A stretch of DNA of 32,000 nt from Thioalkalivibrio paradoxus ARh 1 (GTDB taxonomy: Bacteria; Pseudomonadota; Gammaproteobacteria; Ectothiorhodospirales; Ectothiorhodospiraceae): contig NZ_CP007029.1 of NCBI RefSeq assembly GCF_000227685.2, positions 306,047 through 338,046 of the forward strand, written 5' to 3'. Within the stretch, counting starts at the first letter, position 1. Each line of letters begins with the position of its first letter. The position numbers and the translations under genes were made by a program. Under the pieces are notes generated by a model. That model was given only the letters and a program-made list of their open reading frames with translations, made no database searches and had not been told where the DNA came from. Of this stretch, positions 5,364 to 30,302 are shown one piece after another.

Positions 5364-6713
5364 ATGATGGCGAAGACATTCCTGGCCGTTCTGGTGCTGC
5401 TGCTGGCGGCCGTGCCGGTTCAGGCACAGCTGCCTGCTGCGGTGGATGGCGAGCCGCTGCCGACCCTGGCGCCGATGCTGGAGCGCACGGTCCCCGCGGT
5501 GGTGAACGTCGCCACCCGCGCGCTGGTGGTGGAACCGGTCAGCCCGCTGTTCGACGACCCGTTCTTCCGCCGCTTCTTCGACCTCCCGTCGCAGCAGCGC
5601 GAGCGCATCCGGCAGGGCCTGGGATCCGGTGTGGTGGTCGACGCCGGTCAGGGGCTGATCCTGACCAACAACCATGTGATCCAGCGTGCCGACGAGATCG
5701 TGGTCACGTTGCACGACGGGCGCCGTTACGATGCCGAGGTGATCGGTGCCGACCGCGAGACGGACATCGCGCTGATCCGCATCGAGGCCGACCGCCTGCA
5801 GGCGCTGCCGTTCGCCGACTCCGACGCGCTTCGAGTCGGCGACTTCGTCGTTGCGATCGGCAATCCCTTCGGGTTGGGGCAGACGGTCACCAGCGGGATC
5901 GTCAGCGCGCTGGGGCGCAGCGGTCTCGGCGTCGAGGGCTTCGAGGATTTCATCCAGACCGACGCGTCGATCAATCCCGGCAATTCGGGCGGTGCGTTGG
6001 TCAATCTGCGCGGCGAACTCGTCGGGATCAATACGGCGATCCTGGCCCGCGGTGGCGGCAACATCGGCATCGGCTTCGCGATTCCGATCAACATGGCCCG
6101 TCAGGTCCAGGAACATCTGATCGCCGATGGCGCGGTGACCCGCGGGCAGCTCGGGATCGCGGTCCAGGACCTGACGCCGGATCTGGCCCAGGCCTTCTCG
6201 CTGCAGGTGTCCAGCGGGGCGGTCGTGACCCGCGTCGAGCCCGGTTCGCCCGCCGACCGCGCGGGGCTGCGTTCCGGCGACGTGGTGCTCGAGACCGACG
6301 GCCGTCCGGTGCGCAACGCGACCGACCTGCGCAACCGCATCGGGCTGCTGCGCGTCGGGACCGAGGTCCGGCTGCGCGTCCTGCGCAATGGCCGGGAGCA
6401 GTTCGTGGTCGCCCGTATCGAGGCGCCGCAGCGCCAGGAGATCGACGGCGCGTCGATCGATGCCCGGCTCGCTGGCGCGCAGTTCGCCCGCATGCTGCAG
6501 CGCGACGGTGAACCGCGCATCGCGATCAGCGCGGTCGAGCCGCGTTCGGCGGCGGCTCGTGCCGGCCTGCGCGAGGGCGACGTGGTGCTGTCGATCAACC
6601 GGCGCGAGGTCAGCGAGCTGGACGACCTCCGCACAGCGGCCCAGGCTGGCCGGGGCGGGCTGCTATTGAACATCCAGCGCGGTGACGGTGCGTTCTTCCT
6701 GATGCTTCAATAG
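5364..6713 (+). CDS. periplasmic serine endoprotease, DegP/DegQ/MucD family (two PDZ domains)
   Basis: ORF 5334..6713; likely start MMAKTFLAVLVLLLAAVPVQA (signal peptide) at 5364 with GGAG 7 nt upstream; trypsin-like His/Asp/Ser context (TNNHV, DIALIRI, GNSGGAL); two PDZ-like segments. Confidence 0.9.
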   Translation: MMAKTFLAVLVLLLAAVPVQAQLPAAVDGEPLPTLAPMLERTVPAVVNVATRALVVEPVSPLFDDPFFRRFFDLPSQQRERIRQGLGSGVVVDAGQGLILTNNHVIQRADEIVVTLHDGRRYDAEVIGADRETDIALIRIEADRLQALPFADSDALRVGDFVVAIGNPFGLGQTVTSGIVSALGRSGLGVEGFEDFIQTDASINPGNSGGALVNLRGELVGINTAILARGGGNIGIGFAIPINMARQVQEHLIADGAVTRGQLGIAVQDLTPDLAQAFSLQVSSGAVVTRVEPGSPADRAGLRSGDVVLETDGRPVRNATDLRNRIGLLRVGTEVRLRVLRNGREQFVVARIEAPQRQEIDGASIDARLAGAQFARMLQRDGEPRIAISAVEPRSAAARAGLREGDVVLSINRREVSELDDLRTAAQAGRGGLLLNIQRGDGAFFLMLQ

Positions 6714-12228: not shown

Positions 12229-12304
12229 GGCCAGGTAGCTCAGTTGGTAGAGCAGGGGATTGAAAATCCCCGTGTCGGCGGTTCGATTCCGTCCCTGGCC
12301 ACCA
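12229..12304 (+). tRNA. tRNA-Phe (anticodon GAA)
   Basis: 76 nt; acceptor stem GGCCAGG/CCTGGCC, D-arm AGCTCAGTTGGTAGAGC, anticodon loop ATTGAAAAT (GAA), T-arm GGTTCGATTCC, encoded CCA. Confidence 0.95.
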
Positions 12305-12307
12305 TTT
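12297..12307. repeat. attL core (direct repeat GGCCACCATTT)
   Basis: Exact 11-bp match to 29901-29911; overlaps the 3' end of tRNA-Phe. Confidence 0.75.
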
Positions 12308-12403: not shown

Positions 12404-12466
12404 GTTACCCCGAGGGATAGGGGTAACTTGTGGGGTAACTGGTCGAGCGGAAAAGGGAGTTACCCC
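12404..12466. promoter_or_regulatory. cluster of four GGGGTAAC/GTTACCCC motifs upstream of int (candidate arm-type sites)
   Basis: GTTACCCC 12404-12411 and 12459-12466; GGGGTAAC 12420-12427 and 12432-12439; same motif twice near attR (29813-29832). Confidence 0.45.
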
Positions 12467-12469
12467 ACT

Positions 12470-13699
12470 ATGCCCCTCACAGACGCCGAAATCCGCGCCC
12501 TGAAGCCCGGGGAACGCCCGTTCAAACGCTACGATGAACACGGGCTCTTCATCGAGGTGCCGCCGTTTGGGGCGCTACGCTGGCGGTTCCGCTACAAGTT
12601 CGCTGGCAAGGCGAAGCTGATGAGCCTGGGCACCTACCCCGCCGTCCGCCTGAAGGCGGCCCGAACCGCCCGGGACGATGCCCGCGACCTGCTGCGCAAG
12701 GGGATCGACCCCAGCACGCGCAGGCAGGCCGAGAAACGCGCGCAGGCTCGGGCGGGCCAGCGCTCCGTCGAGGCCGTGGCGCGGGAATGGTTCGAGGCGG
12801 TGCACCAGAAAGCCGTGGTGGCAACGCACTCCGGACGCAACCTGCGTCGGCTCGAGCGCTACGTGTTCCCCAAGATCGGCCGCCGTGCCATCGGGGAGAT
12901 CGAGCCGTCAGACGTGCTCGCCCTGCTGCGCGGCATCGAGAAGGCCGGCAAGCTGGAGACGGGCCACCGGGTCAAGACCCTGCTCGGGCACGTATTCCGG
13001 TATGGGATCGCCACCGGCCGAGCGAAGCGCGACCCAACCGCCGATCTGAAGGGGCTGCTGGCCAGCGCCGAGACACGCCACCATCCGGCCGTGACCGACC
13101 CCTCCGAACTACCGGGGCTGTTGCGCGCCATCGACGGATACACCGGATACCCCCCCACCGTGGCCGCGCTGAAGCTGTCCGCGCTCCTGTTCGTCCGCCC
13201 CGGGGAGATGCGGACAATGGAATGGGCGAGCCTGCGCCTGGATGCCGCTGAATGGAACTATCGTCCGAGCAAGGGCGGAATCCCACTGCTGGTGCCGCTA
13301 CCGACGCAGGCGGTGGAGATCCTGCGGGAACTGCAACCGCTGACCGGGCTTGGGACGTATGTGTTCCCGAGTGCACGCGGCCGCGGCCGGCCGATGAGTG
13401 AAAACACCGTGAATGCTGCGCTGCACCGAATGGGGTACAAGGACCAGATGAGTGCGCACGGCTTTCGAGCCATGGCCCGCACCATCCTGGTCGAGCGCCT
13501 GGGCTGGGATGAGCGCTACGTAGAAATGCAACTCGGGCACGCGGTACGCGACGCCAATGGCCGTGCCTACAACCGGGTCACGTTCCTCGATCAGCGCCGG
13601 GAGATGCTGCAAAGCTGGGCCGATTATCTGGACGGGCTGCGCGATCCAGCGGCGAACGTCGTTCCGATACGGGCAGGTAGCGCGGCGGCTGTCCGATAG
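12470..13699 (+). CDS. int: tyrosine-type integrase, P4/CP4-57 family
   Basis: ORF 12428..13699 trimmed to MPLTDAEIRALKPGERPFKRYDEHGLFIEV at 12470 (typical P4-integrase N-terminus); C-terminal catalytic region (HGFRAMARTIL, LGHAVRD, RAYNRV). Confidence 0.9.
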   Translation: MPLTDAEIRALKPGERPFKRYDEHGLFIEVPPFGALRWRFRYKFAGKAKLMSLGTYPAVRLKAARTARDDARDLLRKGIDPSTRRQAEKRAQARAGQRSVEAVAREWFEAVHQKAVVATHSGRNLRRLERYVFPKIGRRAIGEIEPSDVLALLRGIEKAGKLETGHRVKTLLGHVFRYGIATGRAKRDPTADLKGLLASAETRHHPAVTDPSELPGLLRAIDGYTGYPPTVAALKLSALLFVRPGEMRTMEWASLRLDAAEWNYRPSKGGIPLLVPLPTQAVEILRELQPLTGLGTYVFPSARGRGRPMSENTVNAALHRMGYKDQMSAHGFRAMARTILVERLGWDERYVEMQLGHAVRDANGRAYNRVTFLDQRREMLQSWADYLDGLRDPAANVVPIRAGSAAAVR

Positions 13700-13781
13700 T
13701 TAGGAAGCACAGGTATTGCGAAACGGATAGGTAAAATAGTTTAGGGTCGTGGACACTCGCCTGATGTCGTGACAATAGTAT

Positions 13782-13813
13782 GGGTGTCGCCCACTCACAG
13801 CGAGGCGACACCC
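13782..13813. promoter_or_regulatory. 10-bp perfect inverted repeat abutting the alpA-like start
   Basis: GGGTGTCGCC (13782-13791), 12-nt spacer, GGCGACACCC (13804-13813); ATG at 13814. Confidence 0.35.
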
Positions 13814-14059
13814 ATGACCCACATGCAGACCCGTAGTGCCCCCCGCCCCACCGAGCAGCCGAGCCCGATCGGCGACCCTTTACTCCGGATGCCCGCAGTA
13901 CTCGCGGCGACCGGAATATCTCACAAAGCAACGATTTATGCGGCGATGGCCGCTGGCACGTTCCCGAGGCCGGTTCGGATCGGCTCGCGTGCTGTGGCGT
14001 GGCGATCGAGCGATATTGCGGCCTGGATCGCCACGCGCCCGGTTGCGGGTGATGAGTGA
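13814..14059 (+). CDS. alpA: AlpA-family HTH protein (excisionase/transcriptional regulator type)
   Basis: LLRMPAVLAATGISHKATIYAAMAAGTFPRPVRIGSRAVAWRSSDIAAWI matches the AlpA/prophage CP4-57 regulatory pattern; start uncertain (GTG 13769 or ATG 13814). Confidence 0.75.
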   Translation: MTHMQTRSAPRPTEQPSPIGDPLLRMPAVLAATGISHKATIYAAMAAGTFPRPVRIGSRAVAWRSSDIAAWIATRPVAGDE

Positions 14060-15489
14060 TGGACGCGCAAAACCACCGACCCGGGGGTGGCAGCCCCCGG
14101 GCGGATCGAGCAGATAGTGGGATCGCCGATGGACACCGGCCCCGACATTATGCCGCAACGCATAACCAGGCGCTAGCCCGCCAACTGAGCCCGGACCAGG
14201 CCCGCGCGCTGGAAGAACTGATCGCGTTCGACCGGGGCACCGAGCCCGTGCACGCGCTGGCCGGCCCGGCAGGGAGCGGCAAGACATTCCTACTCGGCGA
14301 GTTCGTGGGGCGGTGCAGCCGTCGTTTGGAGATCACGGCGACGACCAACAAGGCCGCAAGAGTCGCCGCGCTCGCGACCGGCACCGAGCCCAAGACGATC
14401 CACGCCCTGTTGGGGCTCCAGCCGCGCGACGATGAGAACGCCGGCCGGACCGCCCTGAAGCAAATCCGCGACCCAGAGGTTGAACCGGGCTCGCTGGTGG
14501 TGGTGGATGAAGCGTCAATGATCGACTCCGATCTGCTCGGCGCGATCGAGCGTCACGCGCGGACCCTCCGGTTCAAGGTCCTGTTCGTCGGCGATGCGTA
14601 CCAGCTCCCACCGATTTTCGAGGCGCGGAGTCCGGTATTCGCCGGCGTGCCAACCAGCCACCTGACGACCATCCACCGGCAGGCCCTCGACAATCCGGTG
14701 CTCGCCATCGCGAACGAGTTTCGGGCCGTGCTGGACGGCAGCCCGATGCCGCGCGTGCGTGCGCTTGGAAGCGAAGTTCGGGTTCTGCCCGAAGGCGAGT
14801 TCCTGGCGCGCATGCTCGAGGCGTTCGAGCGGGCGAGTGACCCGTCGGAGGTCCGGGCGCTGGCCTGGACGAACCAAACCGTCCGGGAGCTGAACCAGGC
14901 CGTCCGGCGCCACCTGATCGGTCCCGAAGCCGAGGAATTGGCGCACCTGCCCGGCGAGCGATTCATTGCGAATTCCGCAATCAAGGACGGCGACCGCGTG
15001 GCAGTGCCGACCGAAGCCGAAGTCGAGGTTGTGAGCAGCCAGCGCGTGAACTTCGAGGCGGACGGGATCACATTCGCCGGCGAGCTGGTGTCCGTCCGCT
15101 ACCGCGATCGCGTGCTCGAGCTGCACGTCCCGACGGACTGGGATGGCGCTCGGCGCGCGATAGCCGCTTCGGTGGCAGCCGCCAACGAGCTGCAGCGCCG
15201 CTATCGGGCTGGCGATCGCACTGTGGACGGGGACCGCCGCGCGGCGTGGCGCGCCTTTTTCCGGCTGAAGGAGTGGCTGCACGACCTGCGTCCGGTCTAC
15301 GCGTCAACCGTCCACAAATCCCAGGGCAGCACCTACGCGCACGCGTTTATCGACGCGGGAGACATCGGCCGGTGCACCCGAACCGACGTGATCGCGCGAC
15401 TGATGTACGTGTCCACGAGCCGGGCCGCGCAGTCGGTGACGCTGACTGGCGAGCTGCCGGAGCGACTGTACCGGGAGGTGGCGGCATGA
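14056..15489 (+). CDS. SF1 RecD/Dda-like DNA helicase (AAA_30 plus UvrD_C-like)
   Basis: Walker A GPAGSGKTF, Walker B VVVDEASMI, FVGDAYQLPPI, TIHRQ, STVHKSQGSTY; start overlaps the alpA-like stop. Confidence 0.8.
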   Translation: MMDAQNHRPGGGSPRADRADSGIADGHRPRHYAATHNQALARQLSPDQARALEELIAFDRGTEPVHALAGPAGSGKTFLLGEFVGRCSRRLEITATTNKAARVAALATGTEPKTIHALLGLQPRDDENAGRTALKQIRDPEVEPGSLVVVDEASMIDSDLLGAIERHARTLRFKVLFVGDAYQLPPIFEARSPVFAGVPTSHLTTIHRQALDNPVLAIANEFRAVLDGSPMPRVRALGSEVRVLPEGEFLARMLEAFERASDPSEVRALAWTNQTVRELNQAVRRHLIGPEAEELAHLPGERFIANSAIKDGDRVAVPTEAEVEVVSSQRVNFEADGITFAGELVSVRYRDRVLELHVPTDWDGARRAIAASVAAANELQRRYRAGDRTVDGDRRAAWRAFFRLKEWLHDLRPVYASTVHKSQGSTYAHAFIDAGDIGRCTRTDVIARLMYVSTSRAAQSVTLTGELPERLYREVAA

Positions 15490-16307
15490 CGGCACCGGCA
15501 TTCACCTTCGCCAGCGTCGGCGATCGTGCCCGCGGCCGGTGGCCCGAGATCCTGGCCGGGCTGGGGATCGACCCGGCCGCACTGCGCAATCGTCATGGGC
15601 CGTGCCCCGGTTGCGGTGGGCGGGATCGGTTTCGGTTCGATGACCGGGAGATCGGCCGCTTCTACTGCAACGGCGGTGGCGAGCCGGTATCTGGCGACGG
15701 GTTCGCGCTGTTACAACACGTCTTCGACTGGACCGCGAGCGAGGCCCTACAGGCCGTTGCGCAGTCGCTCGGCATGGACAGCACACACCCGCCCCCGAAA
15801 CCGGCACCACGCCCGCCGACGAAGGCCCCGGGGCCCTCCAGGCTGGCCGCCTACGCTCGCGAAACGTGGCTGGCCGCACGGAAAGATGATGCTGCCGTGG
15901 GCTCACATCCATACGCCCGGCGGAAGGGAGTTCCTTGGGCCGCCGGAGCCGGGCGCGCTCGAGCATCGGGACGCATCATCGGGCGGGATTCTGACTGCCT
16001 GATCGTGCCGATCCGAACTCTGGTGGGAAAGCTCCTGGCGGTTCAGGCAATCAATCCCGACGGCGCCAAGCAGACTTTCGGCTCGATGGGCGATGGCTGC
16101 CTGGTGCTCGGGAACACCTTGGATGCGCGGGCGCCGTGGATCGTCGCCGAGGGATGGGCCGATTGCGCGTCCTTCTGCTTCCACCTGCATCGGGGCAACG
16201 CCGTAGCTGTTGTGGCCTTTGGCGCGAGTCGGCTGCAAAAAGTCGCAGAGGCGGTTGCCGCGCACTATGCGCCGCCCCGTGTGACCATCATGGAGGATGC
16301 CCCGTGA
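15486..16307 (+). CDS. primase: zinc-ribbon (P4-alpha type) plus Toprim domain
   Basis: ORF 15246..16307 trimmed to MTAPAFTF at 15486 (ATGA overlap with the helicase stop); HGPCPGCGGRDRFRFDD...GRFYCNGGG zinc-binding motif; Toprim-like WIVAEGWADCAS. Confidence 0.75.
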   Translation: MTAPAFTFASVGDRARGRWPEILAGLGIDPAALRNRHGPCPGCGGRDRFRFDDREIGRFYCNGGGEPVSGDGFALLQHVFDWTASEALQAVAQSLGMDSTHPPPKPAPRPPTKAPGPSRLAAYARETWLAARKDDAAVGSHPYARRKGVPWAAGAGRARASGRIIGRDSDCLIVPIRTLVGKLLAVQAINPDGAKQTFGSMGDGCLVLGNTLDARAPWIVAEGWADCASFCFHLHRGNAVAVVAFGASRLQKVAEAVAAHYAPPRVTIMEDAP

Positions 16308-17923
16308 CTGAACTTTATCGAGGGACATTGGCGCGGGGACCGAACGGCGAGAAGGATATCAATGATGCCGTCCTCAACAATCACCCCGATCTTGTTGACG
16401 AGGCGTTTCGTGGCGCAAAGCCGGTAAACGGCGAGAAGGAAAAAACCAAGTCGAGCCTGATTACCTACGACGAGGCCGCTGGCGCCAATCCGAACACCGA
16501 ACAAGGGGCCGCGCTCATCAAAGCCTACCGGAAGCAGGAGCGCGAAGCGTTCAACGCCCGGTACGGAATGCTGATGATCGAGGGCAAACCAGTCGTGGTC
16601 TACCGAGAGCGGAACGGGAATACGGGCGAGATCGAAACGAAGTTCTCGAGCCCGGAGGCCATGGCGACCTTCACCGCCAACCGGAAAATCCCGTTCGTTG
16701 TCGAGACAGGGAAGGAGTCCCGTATCGAGTGGAAGCCGATCTTCCAGGACTGGAAGCAGGGCCGGTGGCGGCGTTCCTACGATCAGCCCGTGTTCGCGCC
16801 GGCCGCGAATCTTGAGGCCAGCACGGACATGCCACCAGCCGGGGGCACCTACAACCTCTACGCCGGGCACCAGTTCAAACCCAAGCCCGGCAACTGTGAA
16901 CGCATCTTGCAACATATCGGGGAGGTGTGGTGCGCGGGGAATTCTGAAGCCTTTGATTACATCGTCAACTGGCTGGCGCGAATGGTGCAAAAGCCGCGAG
17001 AGCAGGGGCGCACCGTCATTGTCCTGCGGTCTGGCGAGGGCACCGGCAAAAACATCCTGTTCGACACCTTTAGCCGGTATTACGGAAACCATGCCTGCAT
17101 GCTGACGAAGCCGGAGGATCTGGTTGGCTTCAACGACCATCTGGCGACGGCGGTATTCGTGTTCCTGAACGAGGCGTTGTGGGGCGGAAACAGGAGCGCG
17201 GAAGGCCCGGTCAAGAGCGCGATTACCGACGACACGCTGATGGTGGAGCGCAAATGGGTACCCAAGTTCAAGACGGCGAACTGCACCCACATCGTCGTCG
17301 CCACCAATAACGACTGGGCGGTTCCCGTCGGTATAGACGACCGCAGGTTTCTGATTCTCGATCTGGATGAGAAGCACAAGGGAGACGCCGCCTACTTCGA
17401 CGGGCTCCTGCGTGAGATCCACAACGGCGGTCAGGAGGCTTTCATCCACTACCTGATGGCCCGCGACATCACCCGGTTCGACGTGCGCGCCATACCTGAG
17501 ATTCAGAGCGCATCGAAACTGGACCACAAAGTGAGGACCAGTGACCCGATCACTCAGTGGTGGATCGACACGCTGACCGACGGCGAGTTTGCCCACGAGA
17601 TCGAGGATACGGACACCCACGGTCGGCCGGTTCGGCGTGTTGCAGTGACCGCTTGGCCAATGGACAAGCCGCTAATCATCGAAGAACAGGCAGTCTTTAA
17701 CTGCTACTGCCGCGCGCACCGGAGCCGCCACCTGGACAGCAAGGCGGTGCTCACGAAGAAATTGCGTGAGCTGTGCCCCGGCCTACGGACCGGCCTGCGC
17801 CATCGCACATCTGCGTCCTCGCGCCCGAGGCTTTACGGCCTCCCCGCCCTGAGCACGGCGCGGGAAGCGATGGAACTGCGGCTGCGCCAGCGAGGGCCAT
17901 GGGCCGATGAGGCAGACCAGTGA
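16304..17923 (+). CDS. SF3 helicase-type NTPase (D5 / P4-alpha C-terminal / DUF5906-like)
   Basis: ORF 16136..17923, probable GTG start at 16304 (GTGA overlap with the primase stop); Walker A SGEGTGKN, Walker B VFVFLNEA, motif C VVATNN. Confidence 0.75.
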   Translation: MTELYRGTLARGPNGEKDINDAVLNNHPDLVDEAFRGAKPVNGEKEKTKSSLITYDEAAGANPNTEQGAALIKAYRKQEREAFNARYGMLMIEGKPVVVYRERNGNTGEIETKFSSPEAMATFTANRKIPFVVETGKESRIEWKPIFQDWKQGRWRRSYDQPVFAPAANLEASTDMPPAGGTYNLYAGHQFKPKPGNCERILQHIGEVWCAGNSEAFDYIVNWLARMVQKPREQGRTVIVLRSGEGTGKNILFDTFSRYYGNHACMLTKPEDLVGFNDHLATAVFVFLNEALWGGNRSAEGPVKSAITDDTLMVERKWVPKFKTANCTHIVVATNNDWAVPVGIDDRRFLILDLDEKHKGDAAYFDGLLREIHNGGQEAFIHYLMARDITRFDVRAIPEIQSASKLDHKVRTSDPITQWWIDTLTDGEFAHEIEDTDTHGRPVRRVAVTAWPMDKPLIIEEQAVFNCYCRAHRSRHLDSKAVLTKKLRELCPGLRTGLRHRTSASSRPRLYGLPALSTAREAMELRLRQRGPWADEADQ

Positions 17924-17965
17924 CCCGGACTTGGGCGCGACCGATGCAGCCACGACACCCTGGCC

Positions 17966-18217
17966 TGGACCACTTGGACCAAAAAAAGGCATTTTTAAAC
18001 AGCTACTTACGGTTGGTGGTCCAGGTGGTCCAGGTGGTCCAAAGAATTTCAAAAAGTATCCAAAGGCCCAGATTGGCCCCTGGGGGGAACAAGTTGGAAA
18101 AGTGCCCCGGATCTTGGACCACCTGGACCAGAAGCCCAGTTGGCCAGGAAAAACAACCACTTGTGGTGGTCCAGGTGCCTGGACCACACCTGGACCACCT
18201 GGACCACACCTGGACCA
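17966..18217. repeat. iteron block: 12 copies of TGGACCA/TGGTCCA (consensus ACCTGGACCAC) with AT-rich tracts; candidate replication origin
   Basis: TGGACCA at 17966, 17975, 18115, 18124, 18180, 18191, 18200, 18211; TGGTCCA at 18017, 18026, 18035 (9-bp phasing) and 18167; AT-rich 17981-18000 and 18041-18062. Confidence 0.7.
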
Positions 18218-18233
18218 CAACAGGAGGCATCCC

Positions 18234-18497
18234 ATGGGGACGATCCGCAGCCAGAGCCCACGCCACGAGATGAGCGCGCCGAGCCTGAACGACAGCATCC
18301 GCACGGTTTCCGCTGCGTGCGAATCCCAGGGGCTGGATGCTTCTCCAGACGCGAGGCTTGCCGCAGCCGTGGAGCTTTTCCGGCACGGTCACTGGATGAA
18401 TGACCGGGACACGCACGACGAACAGGCTGGCGGCATCGCTGACTGCCTGGATCGCATCGCTGCCGCTATCGAGCAGTTCAGCGGGGCGCCACCATGA
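18234..18497 (+). CDS. hypothetical protein (87 aa)
   Basis: ATG 18234 preceded by AGGAGG (18222-18227), immediately after the iteron block; no recognisable domain. Confidence 0.5.
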   Translation: MGTIRSQSPRHEMSAPSLNDSIRTVSAACESQGLDASPDARLAAAVELFRHGHWMNDRDTHDEQAGGIADCLDRIAAAIEQFSGAPP

Positions 18498-18582
18498 CCC
18501 GCCCGCCGCCGCTGTCCCCGTTCCGGAGAAACCCGTTCCGCCTGCGACCGCGCCGCAAGCCGGCGCCGAAGGAGTGACGACC

Positions 18583-18741
18583 ATGACACAGCAACGCGAC
18601 CTTTTCCGAGGCAAACCGGCCCGAAAGCCCCGCCGCCCCGGGAGCTACCGCCGGCAGGAGCCGCCGAGGACGCCCAGAGACACGGCTTGGGAGCTGCCCG
18701 AGGATTTCCAGCCGGCCGCAACGAGCAAGGAGGATCAGTGA
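18583..18741 (+). CDS. hypothetical small basic protein (52 aa)
   Basis: MTQQRDLFRGKPARKPRRP..., AAGGAG upstream, stop overlaps the next start; short, so uncertain. Confidence 0.3.
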   Translation: MTQQRDLFRGKPARKPRRPGSYRRQEPPRTPRDTAWELPEDFQPAATSKEDQ

Positions 18742-19145
18742 TGGGCGCGATGAGCCGAACGAAAGGAGCCGCGGGAGAACGCGAACTGCGCCGGTTGCTC
18801 GAGGCCGAGTTGGGACCGGGGATCAGCCGGAACCTGTCCCAGACCCGGGATGGTGGGCATGATCTGACCGGCGTCGGGCCGTTTGCCATCGAAGTGAAGC
18901 GCTACAAGCGGGCGACCGCTTCGATGCTGGCCGCGTGGTGGACGCAGGCTGAGGCTCAGGCGGAATCCGCCGGCCTACGTCCTGCCCTGGCCTGGCGCGA
19001 GGATCGCGCGCCCTGGCGCGTCCTGGTGCGCCTGGCGGACGTTCGGCCCGGGCTGGGACCGTGGCCCGGGATCGAGTGGACCGCCGCTGTTACGCTGCCC
19101 GCGTTCGCTGCGCTGGTGCGGGAAACGGGGAGGGCTGTCCGATGA
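18741..19145 (+). CDS. PD-(D/E)XK nuclease, Hjc-like Holliday-junction-resolvase type
   Basis: Start MGAMSRTKGAAGERELRRLLE at 18741 with AAGGAGG RBS; motif order KG..GE(R/E)...D(L)...IEVKR fits Hjc-like PD-(D/E)XK resolvases common in phages. Confidence 0.55.
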   Translation: MGAMSRTKGAAGERELRRLLEAELGPGISRNLSQTRDGGHDLTGVGPFAIEVKRYKRATASMLAAWWTQAEAQAESAGLRPALAWREDRAPWRVLVRLADVRPGLGPWPGIEWTAAVTLPAFAALVRETGRAVR

Positions 19146-20017
19146 CAGCACAGATTGCGCGCCTTGATGGGAGCGGAGGAACCGGCGTGAGCGACAAGAC
19201 CAGGGAGCGCAAGGCTGGGGAATTGTGGGCACGTGCATCACGGGACGTGGAGTCCGGAGATAGTTCCCTATGGCGCATCGCGCTGCACATTCAGCAAATG
19301 GTGGAAGGCGTGAGGGACTTCCCTGGTCCGCTGTGGCGAGACCGGGAGGTACCGCCAGACTGGAAGCGGGTGCATCTGGATCGCTTCGAGGATTACCTGT
19401 TGAAGCCGCCGCGGGAGGGGATTGGGGTGCCGTCCCTGCTGCGGCTGCACAACCACATGCAGGGGCACGACGAAGGCGAGCGTGCCATCGAGATCCTGCG
19501 TCGCGAGATCCCGGACTATGACGCCCGCATCCAGGCCGAGCGGATGCGGGCGGTGAAGCCGGTGGCCAGGCCGGGCGGTACCGGGGCGAACCAGCACACG
19601 GTTGATAAGAGCAAAGGTGCCAACGGCACATCTGCTCAGGTTAAGGCCCCCAAGCCGAGAGGTACCAATAGCCGCGACCACATCATCGGCCGCCTAAAGC
19701 GTGACGCGCGCGAGGATCCGAAGGCGAAGGAGGTGCTTGCCCGTGTGGAGAAAGGTGAGGTGAGCGCGCGAGCGGCTGGTATCGAGATGGGTTGGGTGAA
19801 GCCTGCGGATCCTGCGCGGATTGTCGAGAAGCAGGTGGAGCGGCTGAGCGACGACGAGGTCGTCGATCTCTACAAGAACCTCGCCAGATCCCTCCCCGAA
19901 GCCAAGTGGAACCACCTTGAGGCCGCCAAGGAAGCCGTCATGGCGCTGAGCGACGACGAGATGGCCGGGTTCGAGGCTTGGTACCGATCCTTGGCTGGCG
20001 TTGGGGGTGACCAGTGA
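19142..20017 (+). CDS. hypothetical DNA-binding-like protein (carries the GGTGANQ...RGTNSRDHIIGRLKRD...GEVSARAAGIEMG module)
   Basis: ATG 19142 (ATGA overlap); C-terminal module shared with ORFs at 24183 and 27115; family not identified. Confidence 0.6.
   Translation: MTAQIARLDGSGGTGVSDKTRERKAGELWARASRDVESGDSSLWRIALHIQQMVEGVRDFPGPLWRDREVPPDWKRVHLDRFEDYLLKPPREGIGVPSLLRLHNHMQGHDEGERAIEILRREIPDYDARIQAERMRAVKPVARPGGTGANQHTVDKSKGANGTSAQVKAPKPRGTNSRDHIIGRLKRDAREDPKAKEVLARVEKGEVSARAAGIEMGWVKPADPARIVEKQVERLSDDEVVDLYKNLARSLPEAKWNHLEAAKEAVMALSDDEMAGFEAWYRSLAGVGGDQ
19484..19704. repeat. 221-bp segment duplicated (diverged) at 27316-27536
   Basis: Same length in both copies; first ~42 bp differ at one position; encodes AIEILRREIPDYDARIQ...GGTGANQ...IIGRLKRD in both. 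Confidence 0.8.
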
Positions 20018-21650: not shown

Positions 21651-24134
21651 ATGAGCGACGTTCGATTTTCTGCAGATCCCAGCAGTGTCCTGCGCGCGAT
21701 GCAGGACATCCAGCGCGCGATCCAGCGCGCGGGACAGGAAGGCAAGGCCTTCTCCGAGATGGACCTGTCGCATCCGGAGTTGAAGGACCTGGAGCGCGAC
21801 ATGGCGCGGCTGCGTTCGAGCATGCTGGCGCTGCAGCGGATTTCCCCGGGAAGCCAGTTTGCGCGGGGGCTCAAGCAGTCCGGGCAAGCCGGGATGGACC
21901 CATGGGCGGTGGATTGGCGCCGTGCGTTTCCGGAGCAGCAGCAGCGGGACAAGGCGCTGCATCGGCTGGTGCAGGGATCCGGGCATGCCTACGGTGGCGA
22001 TGGCGGCCAGCGTCCGCCGGGTGGTGGTGGTTTCGCGGCGCCGATGGGTGGTTCGCTGGGGACGCTCGCACGCACGGCGCTGCCGATCGCGATGGGCGGT
22101 GGCCTCGTGGCCAGCCTGATGCGCGGGTTGCGTGAGGCCGACCAGACCAGCGAGGCCACCGATACCCTGATGCGTTACGACGAGCTGGGGCGCACATTCG
22201 ACGAACTGCGCGACAGCGTGACCGGGTTGCTGACCCAATTCGGGCTGGCCAATGCCGAGGCCGCCCGGCTGGCCGAGGGCTATGCGCGTGCTTCGGGCGA
22301 GGTGGAAGGCGCGACCGATGCGGTCAAGGATTCGGTGGCGCTGGCCCGCGGCCTGGGGATGAATGCCGAGGGCACGACGCGAGCGTTCGGCAGCCTGCAA
22401 TTCTCGGGCGTGTTCGATCGTCAGGACCGGCGCGAGTTCGCGACCATGCTGGCCGAGATGATCGGCCGGTCCGGCATGTATGCCCGCGGCGACGAACTCC
22501 TGGGCCAGGTGACGCGGATGGCGGATCGGGTGTGGGAGGCGACGCTCGAGGCGCCGAACACGCGGGCGATCATGGAAGCCTACTCGGCGATGTTCGACGT
22601 ATCGGCCGCGACCGGGAAAACCGCGCTGAAGGGTGGTGCCGGCGAACGCATCCTGGCCGCGGCCGATGCCGGGGTCCGCAACATCGGTGGCGGCGAGGCC
22701 GGCGAGTTCTTCATGTACCGGGCGCTGTCCGGGGTGACCGGCGACATCTACAAGCAGCGCTACCTGCGCGACTACGGCGCGTTCGGGACGCCTGGGCAGG
22801 CCTTCGGTGGCGACGACAATCGCACCCTGCTGCAGATCGTGATGGACCAGTTCCGGCGCGATGCCAAGAACCTGAACAACCCGTATGCGTCGTACTCGGC
22901 GCTGGGCGGGTTCTTCAACATATCCAGCCGGCAGGCCGAGGCCATGATGGCGGTGGACAAGCAGATGCGCCAGTCCGGCCTGGGCAACATGCAGTCGCTG
23001 CTGGAGCAGTCCGGCGTTGACCTGTCCGAGATGGACGCGTCGGGCCTGGGGCAGATCGCGAAGATCATCGAGGAAGCGCGCGCGGCCGGACCGGTGAACG
23101 TCGAGGACGTGGCGGATGCGATCCGGCGTGCGGCCGAGGAAGGGCGGATTCAGACCGTGGCGTCCGAATCGAACCGGGAAATGGCCCGCCTGTCCGACCA
23201 GCTCGAGCAACTGATGCGCGATGCACGCCCGTTGCTGACCAACCTGACGGGCTACCTCGCGGATGGGGTCGGCGTGGTGAACGATCTGATCGGAGAGATC
23301 AAGCAGGTCAACGAAAACCTCGCCTGGATCCGCAATCGACTGGGTTTCAGCCCGCTCCAGGCCCCGGAAGGGGTGCCCCCGGCGCAAAGCGCGATCATGG
23401 AGCAGATGATGCGCCTGCCGCTGTCGCTCTGGCAGGGTAGGCGCTCGGCGCTGGACTGGATGCGCGAGCGTTTCTCCCGGGAAGATAAGCCGGAGTCGTC
23501 CGAGCCAGAACCGTCTGGCGGCCTGGGCCGCATCGGCCCCGGGATCATCCCGTGGTCTGACCTGCACACGGTCGGGCCGGAGATCGGCTTGACCGATGGA
23601 ATCCCATCACGGGCCGCGATGGAGCGCGTGGATGCCCATTACAACCTGCCTCGGGGCACGATCTGGGCGCTGACCCGCACCGAGAGTAATCACGACCCGA
23701 ACGCCGTTTCCCATGCGGGTGCGATGGGGATCGCGCAGTTCATGCCGGGGACCGCCCGGGACATGGGCCTGAACGACCCGTTCGACCCGTATGCGTCGAT
23801 CGAAGCGGCCGGCCGCTACATGCGCCACCTGCTCGACCAGCCCTACATCCACACGCTGCAGGACGCTCTGGCTTCCTACAACGCAGGCCCCGGCAACTTC
23901 CGGGACCGCGGCGCCTACTACTGGCGCGAGCCCACCGAGCACCGGGAACGCTTCGAACGTCACTTCAGCGCCTACCAGCGCGACAACCCGGATCCGGTCA
24001 ATGTCGTGGTGCATGTGCATCCGCAACCGGACGGGCCGCCGGAGGTCGAGGTCGAGGTCGATGGCCGCGTCCGGGACACCAGCGTTGGCGAAGGCGCCTA
24101 CCACCTGAGCGACTTCGCGTTCGGGGCCGGCTGA
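21651..24134 (+). CDS. tape-measure-like protein with C-terminal lytic transglycosylase (SLT) domain
   Basis: 827 aa, RBS CAGGAGG; C-terminal SLT motifs (LTRTESNHDPNAVSHAGAMGIAQFMPGTA...ASYNAGPGN); Gly-rich and helical repeats in the N-terminal two thirds resemble phage tape-measure core regions. Confidence 0.7.
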   Translation: MSDVRFSADPSSVLRAMQDIQRAIQRAGQEGKAFSEMDLSHPELKDLERDMARLRSSMLALQRISPGSQFARGLKQSGQAGMDPWAVDWRRAFPEQQQRDKALHRLVQGSGHAYGGDGGQRPPGGGGFAAPMGGSLGTLARTALPIAMGGGLVASLMRGLREADQTSEATDTLMRYDELGRTFDELRDSVTGLLTQFGLANAEAARLAEGYARASGEVEGATDAVKDSVALARGLGMNAEGTTRAFGSLQFSGVFDRQDRREFATMLAEMIGRSGMYARGDELLGQVTRMADRVWEATLEAPNTRAIMEAYSAMFDVSAATGKTALKGGAGERILAAADAGVRNIGGGEAGEFFMYRALSGVTGDIYKQRYLRDYGAFGTPGQAFGGDDNRTLLQIVMDQFRRDAKNLNNPYASYSALGGFFNISSRQAEAMMAVDKQMRQSGLGNMQSLLEQSGVDLSEMDASGLGQIAKIIEEARAAGPVNVEDVADAIRRAAEEGRIQTVASESNREMARLSDQLEQLMRDARPLLTNLTGYLADGVGVVNDLIGEIKQVNENLAWIRNRLGFSPLQAPEGVPPAQSAIMEQMMRLPLSLWQGRRSALDWMRERFSREDKPESSEPEPSGGLGRIGPGIIPWSDLHTVGPEIGLTDGIPSRAAMERVDAHYNLPRGTIWALTRTESNHDPNAVSHAGAMGIAQFMPGTARDMGLNDPFDPYASIEAAGRYMRHLLDQPYIHTLQDALASYNAGPGNFRDRGAYYWREPTEHRERFERHFSAYQRDNPDPVNVVVHVHPQPDGPPEVEVEVDGRVRDTSVGEGAYHLSDFAFGAG

Positions 24135-24155: not shown

Positions 24156-24183
24156 AGCCCCGGCACGTCCGGGGCTTTCTCGT
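24156..24183 (+). terminator. hairpin terminator candidate
   Basis: AGCCCCGG-CACGT-CCGGGGCT followed by TTCTCGTT (weak T tract). Confidence 0.45.
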
Positions 24184-24956
24184 TGTGGGCGGCCGACATC
24201 GCGGCGAGGGTTCAGGAGTTGCGCGAGCAGAACCCCGACGTCACCCAGCGGGAGATTGCGGAAAGCGCGGGGGTGACGCAACAAAGGGTGTCACAAGTAA
24301 TTACTTGTACCCCTGAGAAGAAGCAAGCCGAGTCGAAGCGCCTATCCGCCCGCCAGCTCTACCTGCCGAAGGATGCGGCGCAGGCGGCCGACATCGCGGC
24401 GAAGGTGCGGGAGATGAAGGAGCAGAACCCGGAGGCGACGCAGAGGGAGATTGCCGCCGAGGTTGGTATCAGTGATCGGCATGTGAGGCGGATCAATGAG
24501 GACACAACTGTGTCCGCTTCCCGCAAGGCCCGTAATTCCGCCAACACGACCGCCCGCCAGCTCTACCTGCCGAAGGATGCAGCGCAGGCGGCCGACATCG
24601 CGGCGAAGGTGCGGGAGGCTGCGGAGAATCCGTTGCGGGAAAGCACCGGCAGACCGGAAGGGAAGAATGTTGTTAATAACAACATTAGAGCGGGCAATCA
24701 TGACCAGACCTACACCCTTCGCCGCCTGGCCCGCGATAACCCGGAACTGCTGGACAAGGTAGAAGCCGGCGAACTGACAGCCAATGCCGCCGCGATCCAG
24801 GCCGGGTTCCGGAAACCTACCAAGACCATCCCGGTGGACTCGGCAGAATCTGCAGTCCGGGCACTGCTGCGCGTGTTCCTGGCGGCCGAAATCCAGGCCG
24901 CGATTACCGAGGACAAGGAGCCGAGCGCGGGGGCGGTGGCCCCGGATGTGTCGTGA
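24183..24956 (+). CDS. protein with three tandem HTH-like modules plus a YTLRRLARDNPELLDKVEAGELTANAAAIQAGF DNA-binding-like module
   Basis: TTG start per ORF track (no nearby ATG); modules ADIAA(R/K)V(Q/R)E..EQNP..TQREIA...G; contains a 68-bp near-exact in-frame duplication. Confidence 0.55.
   Translation: MWAADIAARVQELREQNPDVTQREIAESAGVTQQRVSQVITCTPEKKQAESKRLSARQLYLPKDAAQAADIAAKVREMKEQNPEATQREIAAEVGISDRHVRRINEDTTVSASRKARNSANTTARQLYLPKDAAQAADIAAKVREAAENPLRESTGRPEGKNVVNNNIRAGNHDQTYTLRRLARDNPELLDKVEAGELTANAAAIQAGFRKPTKTIPVDSAESAVRALLRVFLAAEIQAAITEDKEPSAGAVAPDVS
24346..24617. repeat. 68-bp direct repeat (24346-24413 and 24550-24617), one mismatch, 204-bp offset
   Basis: CCGCCCGCCAGCTCTACCTGCCGAAGGATGC(G/A)GCGCAGGCGGCCGACATCGCGGCGAAGGTGCGGGAG in both copies; offset of 68 codons keeps the frame. 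Confidence 0.9.
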
Positions 24957-25966: not shown

Positions 25967-26252
25967 TGAGCGGCCGGACCCGGAGGGCTGGCGTGTCACT
26001 GACCACGTGTGCCGGTACTGCCTTGGGCGCGTCCTGGAAGGCCAGCGGGAGGACGGCAGCATCGTTGCCCGCTGTGCCGACTGCGGAGCCCGCGGTGAGG
26101 GGCCGCACGACAGCGTATGCTTCTGCGGTGCGGCACTACCGAACGGCCGGCATGCTGGGCTGGCCTGCGTGCCGAACGAGAATCCGACCCCGGAGCGCTC
26201 GGCTGAGGTTGTGGTGATCTACGTTGGGGAGGATGTGCGATGCCGAGGTTGA
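25959..26252 (+). CDS. Cys-rich zinc-ribbon-like protein (97 aa)
   Basis: CRYC...CADC plus CFC...C spacing; overlaps neighbours on both sides. Confidence 0.45.
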   Translation: MADERPDPEGWRVTDHVCRYCLGRVLEGQREDGSIVARCADCGARGEGPHDSVCFCGAALPNGRHAGLACVPNENPTPERSAEVVVIYVGEDVRCRG

Positions 26253-26815
26253 CGAAAGACGAGTGGGCCGAGGCGCGCGCCCTGCGGGAAGGGGCCGGGT
26301 TGCCGTTCTCGGAGATCGCCGAGCGGATGGGCGTGGACCGTGCCGCAGTGTCCCGCCGAGCGAAGAAGGAACAGTGGGACGACGGGCAGAATGTCGCCGT
26401 AGCCATCCAGAAGAAAGTCACGGAAAAGCTCACGCGGATAGTCACGCCGAGTGACCCGGTAAAAAAGGCCGAAGCCATCGACGCCGAGGCCGCCCGCCGG
26501 GCTGGAGTGATCGACAAGCACCGGGACGAACTCGAGGCCGCGCGGGTGATGGCCCGGGCCGCGAAGGAGAACCACCAGAACGTTGGGGACCAGATTCCCG
26601 CGGACATCCACGATCCGATGGAGCGGGCGCAGGCTCTGCTGTCCATGAAGCGCGGTGCCTTCGAGGACCTGAAGGCCGCGAAGATCCACGTTGAGACCCT
26701 GAAGCTGATTCAGGAGGGCGAGCGCAAGGCCTGGGGGCTGGATATGCCGGTGGACCTGAGTGCATTGACCGACGAGCAGCTTGCAGCGCTGGCATCCGGG
26801 CGGATGCCGGTCTGA
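26240..26815 (+). CDS. HTH protein resembling Mu gp27/DUF1804-type small terminase subunit
   Basis: N-terminus LTKDEWAEARALREGAGLPFSEIAERMGVDRAAVSRRAKKEQWDDG fits the Mu-like gp27 pattern from memory; helical C-terminus ending ERKAWGLD. Confidence 0.45.
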   Translation: MPRLTKDEWAEARALREGAGLPFSEIAERMGVDRAAVSRRAKKEQWDDGQNVAVAIQKKVTEKLTRIVTPSDPVKKAEAIDAEAARRAGVIDKHRDELEAARVMARAAKENHQNVGDQIPADIHDPMERAQALLSMKRGAFEDLKAAKIHVETLKLIQEGERKAWGLDMPVDLSALTDEQLAALASGRMPV

Positions 26816-26821
26816 AGGAGC

Positions 26822-27022
26822 CTACCCGAAGTCTCCCTCTCGGTCCTGGGCGGGCTTCCCGCCCTCGGTGCCCCCCGGCTGCTTCACCTTCGAGAGTTCC
26901 GCGTCGATGCGCCGGTCTACCTCGGCAACGTCCACCCCGTAGTCCTCGGGGTCGACCTGGCCCATGATCTCCTTCATGCGCCGGTCCACGCTCTCGCTGA
27001 TACTGTCGATTGAGCCGCCCAT
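26822..27022 (-). CDS. hypothetical acidic protein (66 aa); only minus-strand gene in the element
   Basis: GGAGG RBS 5 nt upstream of the ATG; convergent with the TerS-like gene (6 bp between stops). Confidence 0.5.
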   Translation of the reverse strand: MGGSIDSISESVDRRMKEIMGQVDPEDYGVDVAEVDRRIDAELSKVKQPGGTEGGKPAQDREGDFG

Positions 27023-27114
27023 GGCTACCTCCGTCTGTCCGGTCCGTCCACCTTAATTGTAGGTTCTACCGGGATTCCGTGCCGTTTCCGGTGCGTTTCG
27101 TCGGGCTGGGAGCG

Positions 27115-27645
27115 ATGGCCCGCCGTGATACCAGACCCCCGATCCAGCGGGAGCGGGCCAAGGCCGGTGCCGAGAAGGCGAGGGCGAATCCTCTGGATAG
27201 CCACGGCGGAGACCGGAAAGGGGATCAAGGTTCGGGCCGAACCTTGAAGCCCAAGCGAGGGGAGAACCGCGACTACATCCTGTCCAGGCTGGCCCGGGAG
27301 GCGAAAGGCGGTGATGCCATCGAGATTCTGCGTCGCGAGATCCCGGACTATGACGCCAGGATCCAGCGGGAGCGGACGGCTGCGGTGAAGCCGGCGGCCA
27401 AGCATGGCGGGACCGGGGCGAACCAGTACACAGGCGAGGAGAGCAAACCTGACAATGTAAGGTCTGCTACTCCTGACCCCAAGCCCAAGGGTTACGGCAA
27501 CAGCAAGGACTACATCATCGGCCGCCTGAAGCGTGATTCGCGTCTCAATGGAGAAGCCTCGGGGCGAACCAATACACGGTCAATCAGAGCAAAGCTGATA
27601 ATATCAACTTTGCTTGTGCCAGTGAGCCAATGCCAGAAAGGGTGA
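27115..27645 (+). pseudogene. truncated/decayed paralog of the 19142-20017 gene
   Basis: Shares AIEILRREIPDYDARIQ..GGTGANQ..IIGRLKRD but then runs into AT-richer, non-homologous sequence; lacks the C-terminal domain of the full copy. Confidence 0.5.
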
Positions 27646-29832: not shown

Positions 29833-29900
29833 AGATTTTCTTGGTCTCTCACAAAGGTATTGTTATCAATGTGTTGCCGTGGGTTTTCGGTGGAGTCCCG

Positions 29901-29911
29901 GGCCACCATTT
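29901..29911. repeat. attR core (direct repeat GGCCACCATTT)
   Basis: Exact copy of 12297-12307, preceded by a degenerate T-arm-like sequence (GGTTTTCGGTGGAGTCCCG). Confidence 0.75.
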
Positions 29912-29941
29912 CACCTTCCAGCAAGGCCCAAAGAAGTACCC

Positions 29942-29966
29942 AAGCCGCTGAAAAAGCGGCTTTTTT
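29942..29966 (+). terminator. duplicate of the tRNA-Phe terminator hairpin
   Basis: AAGCCGCT-GAAAA-AGCGGCTT plus a T run, as at 12338-12363. Confidence 0.6.
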
Positions 29967-30074
29967 GTGCCCTGCAGTATCGCAAGAGGTCTAAAGCGGG
30001 CGTTCGAGTTACCCCGAGTGAGAGGGATAACTTCCGGGGTAATACGTCGACCCGGAAAAGGGGTTAGCCCGCTA

Positions 30075-30302
30075 CAGCCACTCACCGACGCCGAAACCCG
30101 CGCTCTGAAGCCCGGGAAGCGCCCGGTCAAACGCTTCGATGAGAATGGGCCGTACCTCGGGGTGCCGCTGTCCGGATCGTTGCGCTGACGGTTCGGCTAC
30201 AAGTCTGCTGGCAAGTCGAAACTCATGAGCCAGGGGACCTTTCCCGATGTCCGCAGCGAAGGCGGCCCGGGGATGAGGCCCACCGCCCCCTCGATCGGCC
30301 CG
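30075..30302 (+). pseudogene. N-terminal remnant (~76 codons) of a second P4-type integrase
   Basis: Aligns to int codons 1-~76 (LTDAETRALKPGKRPVKRFDENG...); start codon replaced by CAG (30075), Trp codon replaced by TGA (30186-30188); homology ends at the CRISPR array. Confidence 0.8.

Follow-up and report, generated by a model that had tools for sequence, protein, structure and literature searches.

The 32,000-nucleotide stretch of the Thioalkalivibrio paradoxus ARh 1 genome analyzed here (contig NZ_CP007029.1, positions 306,047 to 338,046; referred to hereafter as the window) carries an island at a tRNA-Phe gene, in which genes for an integrase (int), an AlpA-type regulator (alpA), a superfamily 1 (SF1) helicase, a primase and a superfamily 3 (SF3) helicase are followed by a block of short repeats and then by cargo that includes a gene for a TerS-like protein. 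The repeats lie at 17966-18217, in the gap between the SF3 helicase gene and its downstream neighbor. We conclude that this segment is most probably the vegetative replication origin of the 17.6-kb tRNA-Phe island, a reading that is well supported by sequence comparison.

The repeat block and its DNA context

A motif search of the 32-kb window places exactly 12 copies of TGGWCCA within 17966-18217, the number that the first-pass annotation of this DNA had given for TGGACCA/TGGTCCA over the same 252 bp. Read on the plus strand, the heptamer is TGGACCA at 17966, 17975, 18115, 18124, 18180, 18191, 18200 and 18211, and TGGTCCA at 18017, 18026, 18035 and 18167. The copies fall into five groups (a plus pair, a minus triplet, a second plus pair, a lone minus copy at 18167, and four plus copies), within which successive heptamers are spaced by 9, 9, 9, 9, 11, 9 and 11 bp; the pairs or triplets in both orientations that had been described with 9-11 bp phasing thus take the two values 9 and 11. 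Once the copies are brought into one orientation, the consensus is (A)CC-TGGACCA-C. The first heptamer starts at base 43 past the helicase stop codon (which ends at 17923), again as first described, and the last ends 4 nt short of the ribosome-binding site of the next gene. The features of the gap are:

17924-18233 (310 bp), no strand: non-coding gap holding the proposed origin, with a GC content of 57% (window, 67%)
17966-17981, plus strand: iteron pair G1 (TGGACCA at 17966 and 17975; 9-bp phasing)
17981-18000, no strand: AT tract 1 (80% AT), separating G1 from G2, which is opposed to it
18017-18041, minus strand: iteron triplet G2 (18017, 18026, 18035; 9-bp phasing), the first triplet of the family-wide layout
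18041-18062, no strand: AT tract 2 (77% AT), a candidate unwinding element that opens the G2-G3 spacer
18115-18130, plus strand: iteron pair G3 (18115, 18124), opposed to G2
18166-18187, no strand: perfect 10+10 palindrome GTGGTCCAGG-tg-CCTGGACCAC, containing the facing iterons 18167 (minus) and 18180 (plus)
18180-18217, plus strand: four direct iterons (18180, 18191, 18200, 18211; 11/9/11-bp phasing)

The clustering is far above chance. Over the whole 32 kb there are 14 copies of TGGWCCA against 3.2 +/- 2.0 in dinucleotide-preserving shuffles (maximum 9), and within the 252-bp block the 12 heptamers observed compare with ~0.03 expected, an enrichment of ~400-fold. Beyond the block the window holds two isolated single copies, at 17520 and 22843, and the 14 kb of flanking chromosome searched with it hold none. 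A widespread genomic repeat family, which the first-pass annotation had named as the finding that would undo its proposal, is therefore not seen within the 32 kb, where every copy belongs to the island.

An open frame (17907-18497) traverses the block, and we considered the block as coding sequence. This was rejected: third-position GC in the frame is 0.49 against 0.69-0.81 in neighboring genes, and the repeat motif has a stop codon in none of the six frames, so that the block is non-coding.

The two AT-rich tracts reported at first pass are where they were said to be, at 80% and 77% AT in a window of 67% GC. The spacer between the plus pair at 17966/17975 and the minus triplet at 18017-18035 is 68% AT, and the G2-G3 spacer (18042-18114; 73 nt) is 51% AT as a whole. 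Duplex stability gives the same location: no 80-bp duplex within the island is less stable than 17980-18059, and only one in the whole window is (z=4.2). What was computed directly comprises the repeats and how strongly they are enriched, the low stability of the block and its being non-coding, together with the conserved position and layout and the helicase fold class described below.

Three terminator-like hairpins in 17600-18600 all lie on the minus strand and are uninformative. A GC-rich hairpin (CCAAAGGCCCAGATTGGCCCCTGG) occupies 18060-18083 in the spacer of the proposed origin, and has a terminator score on the minus strand only.

Recurrence of the block behind homologous helicase genes

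Related loci were gathered through homologs of the SF3 helicase in assemblies, genomes, metagenomes and viral contigs, and the helicase stop codon was located in each. They come from gammaproteobacterial (several of Chromatiales type), alphaproteobacterial and chlamydial assemblies, from uncultured viral contigs, and from small plasmids of Roseomonas and Methylobacterium. The position test used the 43 non-redundant loci with enough downstream sequence, whose helicases are 28-53% identical (two of the closest homologs, P0002 and P0005, are outside this set), and took as its repeat score the highest count of any repeated 6-mer on both strands, comparing the 400 bp past the helicase stop with the rest of the locus. 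These 400 bp are the top repeat window of their locus in 24 of the 43, where 3.6 would be expected were the windows exchangeable; at least six copies occur in 23/43 post-helicase windows as against 8/679 background windows (Mann-Whitney p=2e-19).

The loci share a layout as well as a position. Two or three repeats lie within tens of bases of the stop codon and are followed by a 9-bp-phased triplet, an AT-rich spacer and an opposed triplet, often with further copies after it. In 14 of 25 clear-repeat sequences (the window plus the 24 related loci) there are opposed groups with two or more copies apiece, and in these 14 the spacer has a median length of 104 nt (34-111) and is AT-richer than its own locus in every case (14/14, p=6e-5). 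The first-pass annotation had likened the block to origins in which iterons sit beside an AT-rich unwinding element, and had named the 16304-17923 protein as its probable binder. All that was computed agrees with this proposal, including the recurrence of position, layout and AT-rich spacer behind homologous helicase genes in unrelated elements.

Conservation of the heptamer, which had been put forward as a check, holds in the form of variants of one core, present in most of the 24 clear-repeat related loci. The window shares CCTGGACCAC with L053; CCTGGACCGC is found in L004, CCCGGACCAC in L052, CCTAGACCAC in L063, and CCTGGACACC in L065 and the Roseomonas plasmid; TGGACTG recurs in L003, L204 and L205, ATGGACA in L001, and CCTGTGCCA in L005 and L024. 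The identical TGGACCA heptamer, in mixed orientation, also lies directly past far more distant D5-like helicase genes on two viral contigs, L191 (helicase 28% identical) and L144 (helicase identified solely by its Pfam matches to DUF5906, D5_N, Pox_D5 and a winged helix of RFX type).

A search on the motif itself was much less selective. Scanning viral contigs (IMG/VR) for the exact 16-mer TGGACCACCTGGACCA returned >120 loci (L083-L202), mostly collagen-like coding repeats in giant-virus bins; the 16-mer is common there because it encodes Gly-Pro-Pro-Gly-Pro collagen-like repeats, and these matches are a trap for motif-based searches for the TGGACCA iteron. Origin-like blocks were limited to a handful of the matches (L116/L201, L191, L144, L132 and L168), among which L132, a short stretch, and L168, whose tested open reading frames (ORFs) had no Pfam match, could not be tied to a helicase. 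The DNA of 17500-18700 had no match in the phage collection searched, which holds no annotated element closely related to it.

We then asked what the block travels with, by looking for 17 island proteins in the 24 clear-repeat related loci. The SF3 helicase is the only one to recur throughout. Among the other 16, the integrase recurs in two loci, and the SF1 helicase and the toprim primase in one each; AlpA, the helix-turn-helix (HTH) proteins, the TerS-like protein and every downstream ORF have a homolog in 0/24. Judged by this gene content, the survey shows that the other island genes are not needed for such a block to exist. What lies downstream is equally unrelated from locus to locus: a convergent TrwC relaxase gene in L003 and L205, Cas9-Cas1-Cas2 in L204, and the large terminase TerL in L144.

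Two of these neighborhoods deserve description in their own right. In L204 (5664-9953) an island with an integrase and a DUF5906 primase-helicase (51% identical) has a TGGACTG block followed directly by Cas9, Cas1 and Cas2, a type II CRISPR-Cas system carried by a putatively self-replicating island. In L003 (3246-8732) and L205 (2163-7655) the helicase-iteron module stands beside a convergent TrwC relaxase, ArdC and a TraG/TrwB coupling protein, and the replication cassette would therefore also reside in mobilisable or conjugative elements.

A further relative is a complete, circular 9.7-kb Roseomonas plasmid (NZ_CP024585, L206), on which a DUF5906 primase-helicase (34% identical) is the only recognizable replication gene. 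Directly past that gene, at 6128-6399, are 11 TGGACA repeats in the family layout; this block is the best repeat window of the plasmid, which has three further TGGACA copies elsewhere, and the segment has no annotation in the PLSDB gene table, which covers coding genes only. Since a plasmid must have an origin, the block is the obvious candidate, and 6128-6399 is probably the origin of NZ_CP024585. Methylobacterium pMNOD07 has the same arrangement with a CTGCAC-type repeat. The vehicles in which we saw the helicase-plus-block module therefore comprise islands resembling phage-inducible chromosomal islands (PICIs), TrwC/TraG mobilisable elements, the Cas9-carrying island, small plasmids and phages.

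The helicase as candidate initiator, and competing explanations

By sequence, the match of the SF3 helicase in PDB is the helicase part of the NrS-1 primase-helicase. Its AlphaFold model (pLDDT, the predicted local distance difference test score, of 77) was matched by Foldseek to NrS-1, African swine fever virus PrimPol, the PriRep1-DNA complex of a Staphylococcus aureus pathogenicity island (SaPI), the SaPI5 primase-helicase (PriRep5) and poxvirus D5/E5, and its Walker A segment falls in invariant columns of the family alignment (S243, G244, G246, G248, K249 and N250). The likeness to SaPI Reps is in predicted fold only, with no detectable sequence similarity to the helicase.

The last 139 residues, modeled alone, give a confident prediction (pLDDT 91) of a small beta-rich subdomain followed by a helix-helix-strand-strand unit, within which a winged-helix domain is predicted at ~residues 461-535. 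Every best match in a fold search with this model is a winged-helix DNA binder: RFX5 first (probability 0.99, E=0.035), then PadR/LmrR, RTP, and Orc1/Cdc6 on origin DNA; the same search returned no match to the SaPI Rep C-terminal domain or to the P4 alpha domain. We take the C-terminus of the helicase as a predicted winged-helix-like DNA-binding domain, an assignment that, because the fold E-values are weak, lends support rather than proof.

These elements suggest a way in which the origin may work. After excision, the SF3 helicase (16304-17923) would use its C-terminal winged helix to bind the CC-TGGACCA-C repeats. The opposed repeat groups (17966/17975 against 18017-18035, and 18017-18035 against 18115/18124) would place a pair of helicase hexamers in a head-to-head arrangement that flanks the AT tracts at 17981-18000 and 18041-18062. 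The DNA would open at these tracts, and the helicase, loading itself without a separate loader, would encircle the single strands and unwind; the P4-alpha-like primase encoded just upstream would make the first primers, and the host polymerase would take over. The palindrome at 18166-18187 and the four direct copies running to 18217 may be added binding sites; as these last repeats abut the ribosome-binding site of the next gene, they may also couple occupancy of the origin to downstream expression. These steps are modeled on what SaPI Rep proteins and an Escherichia coli PICI have been found to do; for the present island, we infer binding, melting, loading and firing by analogy. A single-site origin with a self-loading helicase is the best-supported interpretation.

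Several observations weigh against this interpretation. Fold matching of the C-terminal domain gave poor E-values, 0.035 at best, and covariation between iterons and this domain is weak: across loci, iteron similarity tracks C-terminal-subdomain similarity with a Mantel rho of 0.22 (p=0.014, uncorrected, five tests), as against -0.005 for the ATPase core, which is suggestive at best. A clear block, by the simple exact-6-mer criterion, is present in only about half of the related loci. The G2-G3 spacer, at 73 nt and 51% AT, departs from that of most relatives, which is longer (median 104 nt) and AT-richer, and AT-richness here is limited to the two ~20-bp tracts. The best helicase homolog is 56% identical, so that there is no near-identical element to show short-range selection on the repeats. 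Finally, the loci were picked via the helicase, which partly builds in the result that only the helicase is shared; co-occurrence therefore does not prove the helicase to be the binder.

The alternative that survives best treats the block as an auxiliary site in the manner of phage P4 crr, bound by the helicase and needed in cis, with replication starting at a second site in the island. The P4 record (NC_001609) invites the comparison, in that the repeats directly past the alpha stop codon form crr, in which type-1 octamers occur in either orientation and pairs of them are spaced by 9 bp, and ori is 4.5 kb from them; moreover, the island primase is a clear homolog of the alpha primase domain, being 35% identical over 255 aa to its N-terminal primase part (E=4e-26). 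The helicase, however, shows no more than marginal similarity to alpha (24% over 169 aa, E=0.002; 33 bits with TIGR01613 against a cut-off of 108.7), neither the island nor the 32 kb contains a second TGGWCCA cluster beyond the two isolated copies, and the complete Roseomonas plasmid, with a helicase of the same family, likewise has a single cluster. The block, furthermore, itself holds the least stable DNA of the island, and we regard a crr-like role without origin function as very unlikely.

An operator array is an explanation to which we give, if anything, slightly less credence. Here AlpA or another HTH protein of the island would bind the repeats to control the genes from 18234, with no role in replication. 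The island does encode several HTH proteins, the palindrome at 18166-18187 resembles a dimer-binding operator, and the last four repeats run up to the ribosome-binding site as an operator might. Against this, a promoter scan of 17600-18600 found no sigma-70-like promoter, an operator of twelve sites, strung out over 250 bp and separated by AT-rich spacers, would be atypical, and AlpA, HTH proteins and downstream ORFs are the very genes absent from all 24 iteron-bearing loci. The blocks follow homologous helicase genes whatever is downstream, and where they lie between convergent genes (L003, L205) they cannot serve any downstream gene as promoter or operator.

There is only a slim chance that the block is a packaging (pac) or centromere-like partition site. 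Such sites are often arrays of short repeats, and the TerS-like protein (26240-26815) would be a candidate ligand for a pac site; the block, however, is 8 kb from the TerS-like gene and adjoins that of the helicase, a TerS-like homolog is found in none of the related block-bearing loci, and a scan of 20 island ORFs detected no ParA/ParB family. Least of all do we credit a non-functional origin of the repeats by chance clustering, slipped-strand expansion, dispersal of a host repeat or descent from a collagen-like (Gly-Pro-Pro) coding piece, which could point to the open frame across the block and to TGGACCACCTGGACCA reading G-P-P-G-P as it does in most of its >120 exact viral-contig matches, but which is at odds with the ~400-fold enrichment, the presence of both orientations with AT tracts interleaved, the third-position GC of 0.49, the lack of copies in the 14 kb of flanking chromosome, and the retention of the layout in dozens of loci with different motifs.

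The island and its place among known replicons

The remaining features of the island, and the genes that flank the proposed origin, are:

12229-12304, plus strand: tRNA-Phe gene (ARAGORN)
12291-12307, plus strand: left attachment-site core GTCCCTGGCCACCATTT at the tRNA-Phe 3' end, from alignment with the right-hand copy
12428-13699, plus strand: tyrosine integrase (Pfam Arm-DNA-bind_3, Phage_int_M, Phage_integrase; phrog_1)
13769-14059, plus strand: AlpA-type excisionase/regulator (Pfam Phage_AlpA, 1e-15)
14056-15489, plus strand: Dda/RecD-like SF1 helicase, accessory (Pfam AAA_30, UvrD_C_2; phrog_325, 1.8e-91)
15246-16307, plus strand: zinc-ribbon/toprim DNA primase (Pfam Zn_Ribbon_Prim; phrog_510)
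16304-17923, plus strand: SF3 (DUF5906/D5-like) helicase, the proposed initiator (GTG start behind GGAGGA; Pfam DUF5906)
18234-18497, plus strand: first gene past the proposed origin, 87 aa, no family match (ATG at 18234; AGGAGG at 18222-18227)
26240-26815: TerS-like protein (phrog_1206)
29895-29911, plus strand: right attachment-site core GTCCCGGGCCACCATTT, 16/17 identical to the tRNA-Phe 3' end

Repetition of the tRNA-Phe 3' end at 29895-29911 sets the size of the island at ~17.6 kb. The int, alpA, primase and helicase genes and the proposed origin are all assigned to the plus strand. The gene at 18234-18497 is not conserved in related loci, and farther downstream are small genes of unknown function and genes for a RusA-like resolvase, an SLT-domain protein, HTH proteins and the TerS-like protein; capsid, portal and large-terminase families were not found among the island ORFs, several of which have no match at all.

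The cargo region contains several further features. An 827-aa protein (21651-24134) carries an SLT lytic-transglycosylase domain at its C-terminus and weakly matches phage tail-lysin PHROGs; it is the sole virion-like or lysis-like gene of an island otherwise without structural genes. The ORF at 24183-24956 encodes repeated helix-turn-helix modules and has internal ~200-bp tandem repeats, of which 24346-24413 and 24550-24617 form a pair that is 99% identical. ORFs 19061-20017 and 27010-27645, whose functions are unknown, have in common a ~240-bp segment of ~80% identity (19473-19710 and 27305-27542), an internal duplication of the island.

Beyond the right end, and directly past that attachment site, 29886-30254 is a degenerate copy of the left end of the island (77% identical), comprising the attachment core, a hairpin and about the first 70 integrase codons; it has the look of a remnant left by a second, related tRNA-Phe island in tandem with this one. 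It ends ~50 bases before an array of clustered regularly interspaced short palindromic repeats (CRISPR) at 30303-31207, in which the 36-nt repeat GCTTCAATTCCACCCCGGCGTTTGGCCGGGGATCAC occurs 13 times and the 12 spacers are 35-38 nt long; even when 5 mismatches are tolerated, none of the 12 spacers matches the island or the rest of the window.

For this genome, the proposed origin identifies the island as a mobile element of PICI-like or satellite-like kind that replicates itself, and not as a dead prophage remnant, and provides exact coordinates for construction of a minimal replicon. On a wider scale, it is quite possible, if short of probable, that DUF5906/D5-like self-loading helicases form a large undescribed family of replicons. 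In such a family, 9-bp-phased (C)C-TGGAC-type iterons would be read by an RFX-like C-terminal winged helix in a fixed geometry (triplet, ~100-bp AT-rich spacer, opposed triplet), helicase and ori would move as a portable cassette, and membership in an incompatibility or specificity group would hinge on one or two bases of the iteron. No top-ranked paper joined "DUF5906" and "iterons" in a literature search, which was limited and is not proof of novelty.

The classical iteron plasmids (pPS10, RK2, R6K, F; Rep_3/TrfA) resemble the island in having repeated candidate initiator sites beside an AT-rich element. Their iterons, however, are 17-22 bp long, mostly direct and helically phased, whereas those of the island are 7-9 bp long and in both orientations; and where their WH1-WH2 Rep recruits host DnaB via DnaA and DnaC, the initiator proposed here is itself the helicase. 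With no Rep_3-type family detected among the 20 island ORFs scanned, the island falls outside the Rep_3/TrfA definition of an iteron origin.

Closer in design is Cch2 of the staphylococcal cassette chromosome mec (SCCmec), a D5-family helicase whose C-terminal domain binds short direct repeats just downstream of its own gene, with three 5-nt iterons (AAGTG) at the putative origin (PMC7581432). Both systems place repeats in the intergenic region past the helicase gene and encode a separate primase adjacent to it. The opposed sets around an AT-rich spacer seen in the island are not described for Cch2, which also differs in its Gram-positive host and its type of primase.

The P4-type comparison drawn at first pass stands only in part. 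The primase homology to the alpha N-terminus (35%) is real, and the island, like P4, has a repeat block directly past the helicase stop codon (crr past alpha in P4), made of short repeats (8 bp long in P4) in both orientations and phased at 9-11 bp; in P4 the C-terminal domain of the element's own primase-helicase binds them. The P4 repeat is TGTTCACC, unrelated to that of the island. What the island lacks is the two-site ori/crr system with a fused alpha: it has one cluster where P4 needs both ori and crr, its primase and helicase are separate genes where alpha is one fused protein, and its helicase is only marginally similar to the corresponding part of alpha.

The agreement is fullest with SaPIs and PICIs. 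In SaPIs and Gram-negative PICIs the origin is placed immediately 3' of rep (PMC9371898, PMC7581432, PMC6092414; Ubeda et al, 2007, as cited in PMC7581432 and PMC9371898). Its short iterons, 6-12 in number, form two sets with an AT-rich region between them, at least two per side and in opposite orientation; Rep binds them by its C-terminal winged helix and needs no ATP to do so, and a segment with rep and ori is enough to drive replication of a plasmid (PMC9371898, PMC7581432, PMC6092414). The order in Gram-negative PICIs is int, alpA, pri, rep, ori, cargo and terS, in one direction (PMC6092414). The island follows this order, with int at one end beside an attachment site, alpA adjoining it, then primase, helicase and repeats, a single direction of transcription and a TerS-like gene. 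Its repeats are immediately 3' of the helicase gene, as they are in 24/43 homologous loci; its iterons are short and multiple (12, within the 6-12 of SaPIs), with at least two per side in opposed sets around AT tracts; and its SF3/D5-like helicase has a predicted C-terminal winged helix, with the primase gene just upstream. It differs in iteron sequence and length (7-bp cores in a 9-bp unit, against the penta- or hexamers of SaPIs), in the extra SF1 (Dda-like) helicase, in a primase that is a P4-alpha-type toprim enzyme, and in its size of 17.6 kb. PICIs are small and free of phage structural or lysis genes of their own; the island has no recognized capsid, portal or TerL family, but it does encode the SLT-domain protein with its tail-lysin matches, along with several ORFs that match nothing. 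PICIs also rely on a helper phage for induction, packaging and transfer, and the helicase region of the island had no DNA match in the phage collection.

The closest known model supported by these comparisons is accordingly the single-site origin of SaPIs and PICIs rather than that of P4. This type of origin is already known, the block of the island being an ordinary further example, and the result overturns nothing established. What it adds is that the rule of iterons right after the helicase gene, familiar from staphylococcal and E. coli PICIs, extends to the wide and poorly annotated DUF5906 family; it could therefore serve for automatic origin annotation and for predicting replicon specificity from iteron sequence.

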